In this document: piece after piece, positions 1,421 to 12,918 of the stretch
Position numbering within the stretch: position 1 is the first letter of the stretch
Layout of the letters: every line of letters starts with the position of its first letter
NCBI GenBank assembly: GCA_019058295.1
Contig: JAHPZI010000028.1
Span: 1-64,000, forward strand
Origin: Promethearchaeota archaeon
Lineage (GTDB): Archaea; Asgardarchaeota; Lokiarchaeia; Sigyniarchaeales; SOKP01
DNA: 64,000 bases
Reading direction: 5' to 3'
Made by a program: the position numbers and the translations under genes
Notes under the pieces: model-generated
The model's database searches: none
Told to the model about the DNA's origin: nothing
What the model saw: only the letters and a program-made list of their open reading frames with translations

Positions 1421-2359
1421 GTGCGATTTATGAAAATGGATTATGATGAGGCTATAAAAAAGGAAGCAGCCTATTTTAATAAACTATTTGTTAAAAATTA
1501 TGAAGTAATGGATCTTCACTTATCAAAAAGAAGTAAAGATCCATTTTTTTATTGGGAAGATCCAAAATTGGAAAAAATTTTCGTGGGTAAATATCTAAAT
1601 CGTATTATTTATCCTTTTTCAAAAAAATCTTTGAAGATTTTGGAATGCGGTTGTGGATTAGGAAAAATATCCTTAGAATTATGTAGACAAAATCATATTA
1701 TCGATGCATATGATATTAGTGATAATGCTATTAAGTATGCTAACGAATATTATCAATCTTTAAAAAAAAAATCTCATAATTTTGGTACAATAAATTATGA
1801 AGTTAGAGATTTAAATAAAATAATTCTTCCAGAAGAAATTTATGATTTAATTGTATGTCACGGTTCAATGCATCATATCTTAAAATCAAAAAGGTTAATT
1901 AAAGAGGCTCATAAATCATTAAAAAGAGGCGCAAAATTTCTTCTTCTTGAAAATGTTGATCAAAAATCAAGGTTAGTCAAGATATTTAACGCAGGAATTG
2001 GTATACTGCTTAGTTTTTTAAAACCACTTAAATTTTATTATAAACTGTTAGAAAAAATAAAGTTGATTAAATCAAATAAGCTTGTTAAAAAATCTTATAT
2101 AAAATCCTTTCCTTTATCCCCTTTTGAAGGGGTTACAGGGAGAGAGATGTGTACCTATTTTATAGAAATCTTTGGAAAAGAAAACGTAAAGATTGAAACA
2201 GCAAATGCTTTTGCTAGAAATTGGGTTGTTAAAATTCCTGGACCAAATTTTATTAGATATCCTATAGCTCGTTTAATCAAACGGATTGATGATATTTTAA
2301 TAAAGATTGGATTTGTAGAAGGATCCAGTATTTTTATTGAAGCAAATAAAAGGAATTAG
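1421..2359 (+). CDS. class I SAM-dependent methyltransferase
   Basis: Motif I ILECGCGLG, AYDIS, YDLIVCHGSMHH, LKRGAKF. Confidence 0.85.
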   Translation: MRFMKMDYDEAIKKEAAYFNKLFVKNYEVMDLHLSKRSKDPFFYWEDPKLEKIFVGKYLNRIIYPFSKKSLKILECGCGLGKISLELCRQNHIIDAYDISDNAIKYANEYYQSLKKKSHNFGTINYEVRDLNKIILPEEIYDLIVCHGSMHHILKSKRLIKEAHKSLKRGAKFLLLENVDQKSRLVKIFNAGIGILLSFLKPLKFYYKLLEKIKLIKSNKLVKKSYIKSFPLSPFEGVTGREMCTYFIEIFGKENVKIETANAFARNWVVKIPGPNFIRYPIARLIKRIDDILIKIGFVEGSSIFIEANKRN

Positions 2360-2529
2360 AATTTCTGTTTTTCTTTTGATATCATCTATTTAATTACCAC
2401 ATCCTTTTATAAAACTGAAAAATATCTTTTTTATATTTCATATAATTAATTATTATTGAGAATTTTTGATTAATTAAAATAGATTTACTTAAATATTAAA
2501 ATATAAGGTGGAAGAACATTTCATTTTTT

Positions 2530-3441
2530 ATGTTAATTCACAAGCTTACAACATATCATGGAAAACCACAGAAATACTTATATTTTCTCTTAACTATACC
2601 AAGAATTAAAAAAATGATTAGATTAATTATTTTAAACTTTAGATACTTGACAAATTGGATAAGAATTTATCCTGATTTTATCATCATAGGAGCTGCGAAA
2701 TGTGGGACCACTTCTCTCTTTTATTATTTAAAACAGCATCCAGATATAAAAACTTCATATGTTAAAGAGGTTAAATTTTTCAATAAAAACAACTATTATT
2801 TAGGTTTTAAGCGGTATAGATCTTTCTTTCCAAGTTTGTTTTTTAAATATTTTTACAAATATATCTTAAAAAGAAAATTTATTACTGGTGAGGGATCATC
2901 CGATTATCTACGTCATCCAATCGTAGCTAAAAGAATTTATTCATTACTTCCTAAAGTAAAATTAATCATATTATTAAGAAATCCTGTGGATAGAGCATAT
3001 TCACATTATAATATGAATGTTAGATTTAATCTTGATAAATTATCTTTTGAAGAGGCTATAGAAAAAGAGCATGAACTATTGAAAGGTGGGATCGATAGAA
3101 TCCTTATAGATAAGCACTATAAAAAATTTAAATTCAACCGGTTTTTCTATTTATTAAGGGGTATTTATTTAAATCAAATAAAATTCTGGTTTCGGTATTT
3201 TCCAAAAGAGCAAATTTTAATATTAAAAAGCGAGGATTTCTTTGATCATCCTCCCGATATTCTAAAAAAAATTTTTAAATTTTTAGAAATACCAAACTGG
3301 AGGCTTTTTAAATATAATAAATGGAAAAAAGCTAATTATCAAAAGATGGATGATAAGACTAGAAATTGGTTGATTAATTATTATAAACCGTATAATAAAC
3401 GGTTATATGAATTTTTAGGTATAAATTTTAATTGGGATTAA
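2530..3441 (+). CDS. PAPS-dependent sulfotransferase (heparan-sulfate 3-O-ST/NDST-like domain)
   Basis: 5'-PSB loop PDFIIIGAAKCGTTSL, KEVKFF, 3'-PB motif LRNPVDRAYS; true start may be a later Met. Confidence 0.9.
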   Translation: MLIHKLTTYHGKPQKYLYFLLTIPRIKKMIRLIILNFRYLTNWIRIYPDFIIIGAAKCGTTSLFYYLKQHPDIKTSYVKEVKFFNKNNYYLGFKRYRSFFPSLFFKYFYKYILKRKFITGEGSSDYLRHPIVAKRIYSLLPKVKLIILLRNPVDRAYSHYNMNVRFNLDKLSFEEAIEKEHELLKGGIDRILIDKHYKKFKFNRFFYLLRGIYLNQIKFWFRYFPKEQILILKSEDFFDHPPDILKKIFKFLEIPNWRLFKYNKWKKANYQKMDDKTRNWLINYYKPYNKRLYEFLGINFNWD

Positions 3442-3524
3442 TTTCAAAAGTTATAAAATTTCTAGACCGCGGATATTTTTGATATTCACTTTTAAATTTT
3501 ATTTAAATTAGCTCCTTCTTTTAA

Positions 3525-4241
3525 TTATAGACCTAAGCATTTAATCAATTTATCAATATTTTGTCCAGTCTTAGCACTTGTTGTTAGAATAGTAATATTC
3601 GGATTAATTTTTTTCGCATCTTTTATCATTTTTTCAACATTGGTACCTAATCGTTCACGAAGGTCAATTTTATTTATGACTGCGATATCAGACATTTTAA
3701 ATAACATAGGATGTTTTTCAACAACCCATTCGCCTTCTGTTGTCGACACTATTACAACTCTATTGTCTGTTCCCAAGGAGAAATCCGAAGGGCATATTAA
3801 ATTTCCTACATTTTCAATGAAAATAACATCATAGTTTGTTAAATCTTTATTATTAATTATCTGATATATATGATACGCATTTAATGCACATTCACGTCCA
3901 GTATTAATTTGTATTGTTTCAGCGTTATGTCTCTCTATTCGGTCGGCATCAACTCTAGTTGTAATATCTCCACATATTACTAATACTCTATATTTTGATG
4001 AGATCGATTCGCTAATCTTTTCTAAAAGTGCGGTCTTGCCGGCTCCAATCGCTCCTACGATGTCATAAGATAATATGTTATGTTGTTTAAATATAATATT
4101 AATCTGCTCAGCTAAAGCATCGTTTTCTTGCCCAACTTCTTTTTTTGTCTCGATAACTAAATCCCTTATTTCATCTCTAGCTAAGTTAGTACTCTCGATT
4201 TCTCTAATCCTATGAATCTCCTTCTCTTCTTTATCTGACAT
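3525..4241 (-). CDS. hypB: hydrogenase nickel incorporation GTPase HypB
   Basis: GAIGAGKT P-loop, QINTGREC, IENVGNLICP, NKID, SAK. Confidence 0.9.
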   Translation of the reverse strand: MSDKEEKEIHRIREIESTNLARDEIRDLVIETKKEVGQENDALAEQINIIFKQHNILSYDIVGAIGAGKTALLEKISESISSKYRVLVICGDITTRVDADRIERHNAETIQINTGRECALNAYHIYQIINNKDLTNYDVIFIENVGNLICPSDFSLGTDNRVVIVSTTEGEWVVEKHPMLFKMSDIAVINKIDLRERLGTNVEKMIKDAKKINPNITILTTSAKTGQNIDKLIKCLGL

Positions 4242-10682: not shown

Positions 10683-11741
10683 ATGGAAACAACCCATCAA
10701 ATATTTTTTAAAAACTCCAACGATATGAGCGAAATTAAATCAAATATAATCGATTTAATAATAACTTCCCCTCCTTATCCGATGATTGAGATGTGGGATT
10801 CCTTATTTTCATCTAATAAAGATATTAAAGATGCACTTCAAGAACAAGATGGAAGGACAGCCTTTAGACTGATGCACGAAGAACTGGATAAAGTTTGGAG
10901 AGAATCTGCAAGGGTATTAAAAGAAGGAGGATTTGTGTGTATTAACGTCGGAGATGCGACAAGAACTATTAATAAAAACTTCCAATTATTTCCAAATCAC
11001 ATTAGAATATCTCAATTTTTCCAGAATAATGGTTTTTTATCATTACCTTGCATATTATGGAGAAAACCAACGAACAGCCCAACTAAATTTATGGGATCAG
11101 GGATGTTGCCTCCAAATGCTTATATAACTCTCGAGCATGAATATATTCTAATACTAAGGAAAGGTGAAAATAAGAGAAAATATCCCCCTAAATCTGAACG
11201 TAGATATAAGAGCGCATATTTTTGGGAAGAACGGAATAAATGGTTTTCAGATATTTGGACTGATCTAAGAGGGACATCTCAGAGCTTAAATAACAATAAA
11301 AAATTGAGAGAAAAATCAGCAGCATTTCCTTTAAAGCTCCCATACAGACTGATTAATATGTTTTCTATTTATGGAGATACTATTTTAGATCCTTTTTGGG
11401 GTACTGGAACGACCTCACTGGCAGCAATGGCTTCAGCTAGGAATTCTATTGGGTATGAGCTTAATCTTGAATTTATGGAAATATTCAAAAAAAATGTGGA
11501 AGAAATCAAGAAATTAACTAATTCTATTAATAATAGTAGAATGATTCAACACATCGAATTCATAAAAGAATTCAAAAAAAAAAATAAGAAGATAAATCAT
11601 AATTCAATAAATTATAAATTCCCCGTTATTACACAACAAGAAAAGAATTTATTACTATATTCCATTAAGAATTGGAATATAGATGGTAATAGTTATCGAA
11701 TAAATCATAAAAAATTTGATTATGACAACATGATTAACTAA
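10683..11741 (+). CDS. site-specific DNA methyltransferase (N4C/N6A, beta class)
   Basis: TSPPY catalytic motif precedes DPFWGTGTT SAM-binding motif. Confidence 0.9.
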   Translation: METTHQIFFKNSNDMSEIKSNIIDLIITSPPYPMIEMWDSLFSSNKDIKDALQEQDGRTAFRLMHEELDKVWRESARVLKEGGFVCINVGDATRTINKNFQLFPNHIRISQFFQNNGFLSLPCILWRKPTNSPTKFMGSGMLPPNAYITLEHEYILILRKGENKRKYPPKSERRYKSAYFWEERNKWFSDIWTDLRGTSQSLNNNKKLREKSAAFPLKLPYRLINMFSIYGDTILDPFWGTGTTSLAAMASARNSIGYELNLEFMEIFKKNVEEIKKLTNSINNSRMIQHIEFIKEFKKKNKKINHNSINYKFPVITQQEKNLLLYSIKNWNIDGNSYRINHKKFDYDNMIN

Positions 11742-11782
11742 TTTAATCTCTTAAAATATTTTAAAAAAAGTAAGTTTTGAAT

Positions 11783-11864
11783 CAAATCCATCCTGCGCAA
11801 CAGTCAATTCATCAAATAACTTTCCATTAATGGGTTTTTTATTTGAATCATTATTTTGGATTTA
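11783..11864 (-). promoter_or_regulatory. candidate eukaryote-type SECIS element in the 3' UTR of 11862-12791
   Basis: Minus strand reads AUGA-U-UCAAAUAA-AAAA-C-CCAU-UA-AUGG-AAAG-UUAUUUGA-U-GA: AUGA/GA core, perfect 8-bp stem, unpaired A-run, apical mini-stem; AAAUCCA/UGGAUUU can form a lower helix. Confidence 0.7.
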
Positions 11865-12791
11865 TTCCTCGCAATCTTGAGCTAGTTGCTGGTTAATCTT
11901 TATAAATCCTGCTTCTTGAATATTTCTCTGATCTGATTTTACTGACCTGTTAACCTGACTTAATTGCTTCATTGCGAATTTTTTGCCTTTTGTAATATTG
12001 TCAATTAATTCCTTTTTACTTAATCCACCACTTATAGTCAATGCTGTTTGAAATGAATGGTCTGGTTCTAAAGTTTTAAATTCAATTTGTAATGCCGAAA
12101 GAATTTCTCCTCCTTCTTGATAGAGGTTATTTGATAAAGTTAATCTTTCTTGATTAATAGCAAAATCTTTAGTTAAAATTGCCTCGTAAGATGTTGGCTT
12201 TGAAATTGTCGAAAAACCCCCATATACACCCGTTTTATCGTATTGATAAATGATATCATTCTCATTATCATACCCAGAAAGATCATCATCAAAGCCCTCT
12301 AGTCCATTAATATCGAAATCGAAGACGAAATACATCGAAAAATCAATTAAATCGAAAATAGAATTATTTTTTAGCGTGAAATATGTATTCATATAAGGGG
12401 CTTGCCCTCGACGGAGAAAAATGTCAAGATATAAACGAATTCGATGTTCTTCTTCTTTTAGTGAAAGATGCTTTAATTTTTTCTTATCAATCATCATATT
12501 TAAATACTCTTTAATATCGAAGTCAAGCGTTATCCTATCAATCGCAGTACCAGTTCGACTATTCACAAGTTGATATATCGGAGTTGGTTCAATATTTTTT
12601 AATATTACTGGTAAAATTCCGATAGATTCTCCTTTTAATTTAAAGCTAAACCACGGTCCAGACAGTGTTGGTTCTGTTAGGTATAATAAGTATTTTTGTT
12701 TGTATTCAATTTCTTTTATTGAAAATCCCATGAGATATCCAGCGGTATTTCAAGTTGCAAAGATTTCATTAAAAGCAACCTTTAAAACTAT
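11862..12791 (-). CDS. hypothetical protein, candidate selenoprotein (309 aa, UGA at codon 14, ATA start)
   Basis: The ORF 11862-12731 continues in frame upstream through TGA (12750-12752) to ATA (12789-12791), 7 nt after GAGGTGA (12799-12805). SECIS-like hairpin follows the stop. The core ORF is confident; the extension is inferred. Confidence 0.7.
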
Positions 12792-12918
12792 CTATTTTTC
12801 ACCTCTTTTAATATTTTAATTTTTGAAAATTTAATCCTAAGTTAATAAAAGATAAAGAATTATTAAATAACTCTAATCATAATTACAATATGAAGTCTGC
12901 GTTTGCTCCTGAAAAAAA

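Follow-up and report, generated by a model that had tools for sequence, protein, structure and literature searches.

Does an in-frame UGA near the 5' end of an unnamed archaeal gene specify selenocysteine (Sec), or does it end a short leader in front of the protein that public databases annotate? Only about ten selenoprotein families are attributed to archaea, and the question is raised here by a gene on the minus strand of contig JAHPZI010000028.1 of Promethearchaeota archaeon (assembly GCA_019058295.1; Lokiarchaeia, Sigyniarchaeales, SOKP01), from which we analyzed a stretch of 64,000 nucleotides (nt), referred to below as the window. A first-pass annotation made from the sequence had extended the annotated frame upstream through the UGA to an ATA codon behind a perfect GAGGTGA site, and had predicted a 309-residue selenoprotein with Sec at position 14, its only Cys in a C-terminal DCEE motif, and a hairpin of the AUGA..GA type about 10 nt after the stop codon. 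All of these sequence details proved correct (the Cys is Cys307), as did the claim that the annotated ATG, codon 21 of the extended frame, has no Shine-Dalgarno-like sequence upstream of it on the minus strand. From the ATA the frame reads I-VLKVAFNEIFAT-TGA-NTAGYL-ATG-GFSIKE, with VLKVAFNEIFAT standing for twelve sense codons; six further sense codons (NTAGYL) separate the TGA from the annotated ATG. We consider it very likely that the gene at 12791-11862 codes for a selenoprotein of 309 residues, belonging to a Lokiarchaeial (Promethearchaeota) family absent from published catalogues. The evidence comes from conservation of the TGA, from homologs with Cys in its place, from the 3' element and from the Sec machinery of the genome.

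A six-frame search of 60 related genomes recovered the gene in 46, or 47 with the genome of origin (3.2 Mb; assembly completeness 79%). The 46 loci that we examined, including that of the window, comprise 34 close homologs, three members of a second family (f4) and nine of a third (f2). TGA occupies the same codon in all 34 close homologs, which form one family with 43-96% protein identity across at least 13 genera, and a 96%-identical ortholog retains every feature described here. The three f4 homologs also carry TGA, in a C-[ST]-[VI]-U motif. At the position of codon 14 the nine f2 homologs, with 23-26% identity, have TGT or TGC, and their motif C-[VIM]-[NE]-C-[KQ]-[EA]-[KR]-G-Y aligns with F-A-T-U-N-T-A-G-Y of the window. 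The TGA is thus shared by 37 genomes rather than being peculiar to this assembly, and the remaining homologs have Cys there, not Trp or another residue. With U written as C, the codon-14 column is invariant in an alignment of 41 sequences (A3). The C-terminal Cys is present in at least 90% of these 41 sequences and in all 30 close homologs printed. Alternation of Cys-x-x-Sec with Cys-x-x-Cys typically marks a redox-active site. The ancestral motif is CxxU/CxxC, of which the window clade has lost the first Cys (F/L-A-T-U). In three loci of the window's genus (L018, L019 and L020) the gene ends in ...G-C-x-D-TGA-TAA, with a TGA three codons past the conserved C-terminal Cys; this codon could be an ordinary stop, lying too near the selenocysteine insertion sequence (SECIS) element for recoding, or it could specify a second Sec as part of C-x-x-U.

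A SECIS element begins at the stop codon of the gene, some 900 nt downstream of the UGA. According to the original description, lokiSECIS elements consist of AUGA, a stem of 8-9 base pairs (bp), an A-run, a terminal AG and then GA (PMC4989117), and a type II form has been described for SelD (PMC4989117, PMC11227280). The element of the window is this known Lokiarchaeal type II form and not a new kind. In most unconstrained folds of the homologous elements, the same architecture recurs: a lower helix, AUGA-N, an 8-bp helix II, the A-run, a mini-stem of 3-4 bp, (A)AG, the 3' arm of helix II and N-GA, after which a short side hairpin, its loop UGCGC-like, precedes the closing strand of the lower helix. 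When helix II was fixed, the lower helix reached at least 5 bp in 30 of 32 elements and the side hairpin formed in 24 of 32. ATGA is invariant in both alignments (A1 and A2) and stands 2-32 nt past the stop codon; N-GA follows the stem in 29 of the 32, with AA in two and one element mis-parsed. AAAA(A) opens and AAAG, AAG or AG closes the apical region in most of the 32. The AUGA...GA element is conserved in 34 of 34 close Sec homologs and absent from all Cys forms, in which unrelated sequence, often the next gene, lies 3' of the stop codon.

Compensatory changes support the structure. MAFFT with RNAalifold recovered helix II but no other part, since the mini-stem, side hairpin and lower stem are misaligned by indels, and per-sequence folds with anchored parsing were used instead. 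Of the helix II cells in the MAFFT alignment 98.7% are paired, and two pairs are compensated; the changes are C-G to U-A in one case and A-U to U-A in three, with U-A to A-U in L042. Double changes affect all three pairs of the mini-stem. The covariation score of 0.136, compared with 0.046 for shuffles, was reached by none of 500 shuffles, and sliding the pairing partners lowered pairing from 89.5% to 25-53%. Compensated helix II variants occur in L030, L042 and L045-47; in L041 the loop is 11 nt long and closes with AG, as in the canonical type I element. Read by eye, L032 and L034 have a wholly different helix II within the same architecture.

The element also belongs to a set within its own genome. 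A strict descriptor ([AG]UGA, a perfect stem of 8-12 bp, leading AAA, GA) gave 25 matches in 3.2 Mb, and full-architecture matches lie just 3' of SelD, HdrA-VhuD (two Sec each, with the element directly 3'), VhuA (where VhuU is expected), the candidate gene and one further UGA-containing gene. The SelD 3' untranslated region (UTR) reads CUCCAUAA ... AUGA-A-UCUUAUGU-AAAAAUGUUAG-ACAUAAGG-C-GA ... CCUUGCGAUGG ... UUAUGGAG.

Two side observations concern these 3' elements. All SECIS elements of this genome have a three-way layout, in which a short hairpin with a loop resembling UGCG or UGCA sits between the core GA and the 3' arm of the lower helix; we found no description of such a hairpin in the available parts of PMC4989117 and PMC11227280. 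The f4 Sec forms L048, L051 and L058 (C-x-x-U, ATG start) lack the AUGA...GA element and share another conserved hairpin right after the stop codon, ...CCCAAG-UWGCC-CUUGGG..., which may be another SECIS type.

The genome encodes components of Sec synthesis and insertion, namely a tRNA-Sec-like gene, a SelB-like factor (240 bits), SepSecS (480 bits) and SelD, which itself carries an in-frame TGA. The tRNA-Sec-like gene lies directly upstream of SepSecS and has a UCA anticodon, a CUUCAAA loop and a long variable arm; the SelB-like gene is found about 3 kb away. This Sec cluster is located on contig C30 (98363-104077), outside the window.

Elsewhere in the genome, also outside the window, we noticed another unlisted candidate selenoprotein, about 145 residues long. 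It reads ...DPGC-TGA-TGA-EQV...FAHYF, ends just before a type I lokiSECIS, matches no Pfam family, and follows ACR3 and an ArsM-like methyltransferase in this genome. The tandem TGA-TGA (as C-U-U, D-U-U or U-G-U-U) occurs in more than 40 homologs and paralogs from four families of the order.

What kind of protein would carry this Sec? The first-pass annotation had described it as beta-rich, with no thioredoxin motif and outside any recognized selenoprotein family, and this description was borne out: the 309-residue sequence has no Pfam match at E up to 1 and no NCBIfam match, and the AlphaFold2 model, computed from a 41-row alignment, is a beta-supersandwich (predicted local distance difference test, pLDDT, 92; predicted template modeling score, pTM, 0.90). 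VIA-align places model residues 1-280 among the N-domains of the glycoside hydrolase (GH) families GH94, GH15 and GH116, with Z scores of 20.0-17.7 and root mean square deviations (rmsd) of 2.5-3.4 A over 213-236 residues; the best matches are 8rf9_A (Z 20.0, rmsd 2.7 A over 230 residues), 1ulv_A (Z 19.2) and 1lf6_A (Z 18.9). Foldseek returned the same supersandwich folds with E values down to 3e-8, and an ESM Atlas feature search with the 289-residue form returned the protein's own clusters together with weak GH94 supersandwich/SOGP_N leads (0.81-0.82). By its model, the protein is a GH94/GH15-type beta-supersandwich and not thioredoxin-like. Since it has no catalytic domain, the likeness to GH94, GH15 and GH116 is a fold relationship only. 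Strands are formed by residues 3-7, 11-13 and 19-22 (pLDDT 91 for residues 1-10 and 84 for residues 11-20), and because these are confident sandwich strands, the 20-residue extension is part of the fold.

With the first Cys replaced in the window clade, the C-terminal Cys is therefore the only possible thiol partner of Sec14, and a redox-active selenol/thiol pair formed by Sec14 and Cys307 is plausible from the conservation of both residues. In the model, DSSP assigns isolated bridges to residues 17 and 305, a hint that would fit a C-terminal tail placed next to the Sec loop.

The neighborhood of the gene is conserved as well. Directly upstream and on the same strand, 40 of the 46 loci, including Cys forms at 23-26% identity, carry a gene for a Roadblock/LC7-Ras-family small GTPase (Pfam Ras 7.7e-37, Roc 2.7e-26 and a weak Robl_LC7 match in the window). 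Of the six loci without it, two lack upstream sequence and three are second-family Sec forms. This arrangement suggests that the GTPase and the supersandwich protein work together, the latter for example as a redox-sensitive partner, although as a mechanism this is conjecture. A complex prediction for the GTPase with the 289-residue form, from which the first 20 residues are absent, was run on alignments of database matches and returned no verdict (score 0.00), which counts neither for nor against the pairing.

Other neighbors are less constant. An N6/N4 DNA methyltransferase gene (Pfam 1.7e-43) converges on the selenoprotein gene in the window, and this link is loose because a homolog is nearby in only 12 of 46 loci. 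The loci with Cys forms continue at once with a third gene, longer than 314 codons, whose ATG overlaps the stop codon as TAATG in L049. The product gives a weak TrmB-like winged-helix match below threshold (E 0.019), and we did not find the gene in the window's genome. The Cys-form loci may hold a module of GTPase, supersandwich protein and regulator.

Several points weigh against reading the gene as a selenoprotein gene translated from AUA. Selenium incorporation at codon 14 is a prediction, and initiation at Met21 could yield a protein without Sec. The tRNA-Sec-like gene scores 44.2 bits, 2.8 under the Rfam cut-off of 47 (E 4e-8), and was not called by ARAGORN; PSTK was not found above threshold in this 79% complete genome, TIGR03574 giving a 23-bit partial match. 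The folding z-score of the whole 3' region is only -1.28, and no Rfam SECIS model matches positions 11700-11900 at E up to 10, where weak snoRNA-like noise was the only signal; according to PMC4989117, SECIS tools and Rfam-type models miss all Loki SECIS elements. At gathering thresholds, Rfam finds one tRNA in the window and nothing else. Shine-Dalgarno-preceded ATA starts are not in excess genome-wide (two strict cases, the same as for control codons), which means that the genome does not start its genes at AUA as a rule. We know of no precedent for AUA initiation in archaea. The AlphaFold2 model was built with Cys replacing Sec, and the functional link to the GTPase is drawn solely from gene order.

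The alternative that survives best keeps the selenoprotein and moves its start, to a near-cognate AAG at codon -10 or AUC at -4 (counted from the TGA), or to another initiation context. The missing enrichment of AUA starts speaks for it, and so do the composition of column -13, which is ATA in only 24 of 34 Sec forms, and the apparent displacement of the start by one to three codons in L021, L036, L042/L043 and L045-47: L042 has TTG aligned to the ATA of L043, L045-47 have GTG one codon downstream of the aligned start, and L036 has ATG three codons upstream. However, ATG fills the same column in L040 and eight of nine Cys forms, and nearly all close homologs have GGAGGT/GAGGTG at a distance of 6-9 nt ahead of the aligned start, a spacing that fits ATA. 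A stop codon lies directly 5' of the ATA in the window, L015, L019 and L020, and therefore no start further upstream is possible there; between this TAG (12794-12792) and the TGA there is no ATG, GTG or TTG. Codon periodicity also sets in at the ATA (-13/-12) and runs on across the TGA, the mean column entropies at the three codon positions being 1.35/1.25/1.53 for codons -20 to -14, where periodicity is absent, and a coding-like 0.83/0.50/1.59 for codons -12 to -1. We judge a start elsewhere unlikely. The aligned ATG, TTG and GTG codons, the Shine-Dalgarno spacing and the preceding stop make AUA initiation the simplest reading, and comparison of the homologs makes AUA the probable start; it is very probable that the gene starts 20 codons upstream of its annotated start. 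The ATA start claimed by the first-pass annotation thus gains from the aligned canonical starts, the Shine-Dalgarno sites and the periodicity, and finds no backing in genome-wide counts.

A second alternative takes the UGA as the ordinary stop of a 13-codon leader reading frame, with the 289-residue protein translated from AUG 12731, perhaps by termination-reinitiation, and with the hairpin serving to terminate or stabilize the transcript. In its favor, no more than 18 nt separate the AUG from the UGA, public annotations begin at this AUG, the hairpin stands between convergent genes, and the folding z-score of the whole region is modest. Yet the codons between UGA and AUG are always in frame and evolve like coding sequence (0.88/0.43/1.31 for codons +1 to +6), with G and Y invariant and third positions free. 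Homologs do not begin at the MGFS Met, since thirteen upstream codons are conserved with codon periodicity. The annotated ATG is not a conserved start, because distant homologs have other residues there (Phe in L045-47 and the Cys forms, Arg in f4), and the Cys forms read straight through the codon aligned with UGA. In addition, the hairpin has all lokiSECIS hallmarks, covaries and is present only alongside TGA, and the first 20 residues contribute strands to the sandwich itself in a model of high confidence. We regard this explanation as highly improbable. Least credible of all is near-cognate suppression of the UGA (read as Trp, Cys or Arg) or decay of the gene in this genome, for which the predicted status of Sec and the undetected PSTK might speak, but which is opposed by a strict TGA, never a sense codon, in 37 genomes together with a SECIS, by the Sec machinery and other SECIS-bearing selenoprotein genes of the genome, by the Sec/Cys alternation that is a classic selenoprotein signature, and by the retention of every feature in the 96%-identical ortholog.

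We therefore favor a selenoprotein translated from AUA, and propose the following model. Translation would start at AUA 12791, 7 nt past the GAGGUGA Shine-Dalgarno site. UGA codon 14 would be decoded as Sec by the genome's tRNA-Sec and SelB-like machinery, directed by the eukaryote-like lokiSECIS type II element that starts at the stop codon. The product would be a cytoplasmic beta-supersandwich with a C-terminal helical tail, in which Sec14 goes back to a Cys-x-x-Sec/Cys motif of the ancestor and, most likely, pairs with Cys307 as a redox-active selenol/thiol couple. The protein might then act, for example, as a redox-sensitive partner of the adjacent Roadblock-Ras GTPase. A more elaborate version is speculative and, in our estimate, has only a small chance of being right: Sec14 (ancestrally in Cys11-x-x-Sec14) and Cys307 would form a selenenylsulfide redox switch on a stand-alone supersandwich protein, which would be dedicated to the neighboring Roadblock-Ras GTPase as its sensor, effector or regulator resembling a GTPase-activating protein, and the AUA start would have been selected, for instance for throttling initiation before a slow UGA 13 codons on.

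Table 1. Coordinates of the candidate selenoprotein gene, its 3' element, its neighbors and related loci (window positions unless a contig or locus is named)
Feature	Position	Strand	Basis or remark
Candidate selenoprotein gene, full coding sequence (CDS), 309 codons + TAA stop	11862..12791	-	Translation; AlphaFold2 model
Shine-Dalgarno-like GAGGTGA	12799..12805	-	7 nt (AAAATAG) before ATA
Probable non-canonical start ATA (AUA)	12789..12791	-	In-frame TAG 12794-12792 directly 5'
In-frame TGA, predicted Sec codon 14	12750..12752	-	Kept among homologs
ATG, start in public annotations, here codon 21 (Met21)	12729..12731	-	
TGC, Cys307 in DCEE, sole Cys codon of the CDS	11871..11873	-	Candidate resolving partner of Sec14
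Stop TAA	11864-11862	-	
SECIS element, lokiSECIS / Asgard eSECIS-like type II	11783..11864	-	Minimum free energy fold, conservation, compensatory changes
Lower helix, UAAAUCCA with UGGAUUUG	11864-11857 with 11790-11783	-	Closes whole element
AUGA	11851-11848	-	Ten nt past stop; then U
Helix II, UCAAAUAA with UUAUUUGA	11846-11839 with 11819-11812	-	
A-run AAAA; AAAG	11838-11835; 11823-11820	-	
Mini-stem, CCA with UGG	11833-11831 with 11826-11824	-	
GA	11810-11809	-	Preceded by U
Side hairpin	~11803-11793	-	
Roadblock/LC7-Ras-family small GTPase, 326 residues	12919..13899	-	127 nt before ATA
N6/N4 DNA methyltransferase	10683-11741	+	
SelB-like gene	C30:98363-99403	-	
tRNA-Sec-like gene	C30:102616-102699		
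SepSecS	C30:102776-104077		
Second candidate, ~145 residues	C8:18037-18477; L062:235-678	-	Also in L071
Three-way layout, SelD 3' UTR	L009 ~2515-2600		
Three-way layout, after VhuD	L061 ~3470-3560		
Three-way layout, after VhuA	L060 ~1540-1635	-	
Three-way layout, candidate gene	11783-11864	-	
Third gene of Cys-form loci	L049:3-968; L059:3-944	-	

How could such a family have been overlooked? Database searches yield 395 matching proteins at E up to 1e-3, and the 120 closest matches listed are all 285-292 residues long and unnamed or 'hypothetical'; among 1.84 billion representatives, 18 reach E up to 1e-30. The Sec forms match the family profile from position 21 because their annotated sequences lack the N-terminus. 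The Cys forms, of 316-322 residues, match from position 2-3. We set aside distant profile matches to extracellular multidomain proteins (PKD, CARDB, dockerin), which share profile positions 128-270 only, a region without Pfam family. The family has few members, which are confined almost entirely to Promethearchaeota/Lokiarchaeia. The single-contig genomes G044, G050 and G055 carry Cys forms; if these include cultured strains, the Cys forms would explain why the family was overlooked there.

The literature gives a consistent picture. Mariotti 2016 (PMC4989117) reported SPS, HdrA, VhuD, VhuU and PrxL and no further candidate in Loki contigs. Huang 2024 (PMC11227280) worked by homology to known families and arrived at seven: SelD, FrhA/VhuU, HdrA, FrhD/VhuD, Prx-like, an AhpF-N homolog and DsbA-like. 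Sun 2021 found HdrA, Prx and MvhD in metagenome-assembled genomes of Sifarchaeia and Jordarchaeia, and a 2026 review added no other archaeal selenoprotein family. The candidate lies outside the seven catalogued Asgard families both by sequence (Pfam/NCBIfam) and by fold. We found it named as a selenoprotein in no paper, and neither the Asgard selenoproteome lists, in the parts of these papers that are available, nor the 2026 review include it. Because Asgard surveys relied mainly on homology (PMC11227280), families without known relatives could be missed.

Judged by its sequence and conservation, this is a real selenoprotein gene of an unlisted family, predicted to use the known Lokiarchaeal recoding system; a redox role of Sec14/Cys307 and a GTPase partnership are plausible. 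The family would add to the short list of archaeal selenoproteins a member that is conserved across many Lokiarchaeial genera and whose Sec forms are uniformly mis-annotated among the 120 closest database homologs listed. It would extend selenium use to a non-thioredoxin, sugar-enzyme-like fold, and it offers a clean natural Sec/Cys pair, of which the Cys forms may belong to cultured strains, a Sec codon very near the start and a probable AUA initiation codon for study. The fixed pairing with a Roadblock-fused small GTPase would tie selenium or redox chemistry to the eukaryote-like GTPases that Asgard archaea possess. More generally, our findings suggest that Asgard selenoproteomes are still under-counted by gene callers and SECIS tools.

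Compared with the Loki selenoprotein genes described in PMC4989117 and PMC11227280, the candidate likewise combines a UGA with an element right after the stop codon, a type II mini-stem and a lower stem. A long distance between UGA and element, about 900 nt in the candidate, is also possible in those genes. It differs from them in being neither thioredoxin-like nor an Fe-S protein, in having its Sec at codon 14, unusually near the start, and in its apparent AUA start. With the supersandwich N-domains of GH94, GH15 glucoamylases and glucodextranase, and GH116 (8rf9, 1ulv, 1lf6, 2cqs) it has a fold in common. In contrast to these, it is a stand-alone protein of 309 residues without an (alpha/alpha)6 catalytic domain, shows about 11-14% identity, has no PF06165-type sequence-family membership (no Pfam match at E up to 1), and possesses two features that are not known from GH94, GH15 or GH116 domains, the Sec/Cys site and the helical tail with its Cys at the C-terminal end. 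Finally, the candidate family resembles the CxxU/UxxC redox selenoproteins, for which thioredoxin-like families of bacteria and eukaryotes are listed in PMC13188914, in that Cys-x-x-Sec alternates with Cys-x-x-Cys; unlike them, it would present this motif on a fold that is not thioredoxin-like, and in the window clade the first Cys has been replaced.

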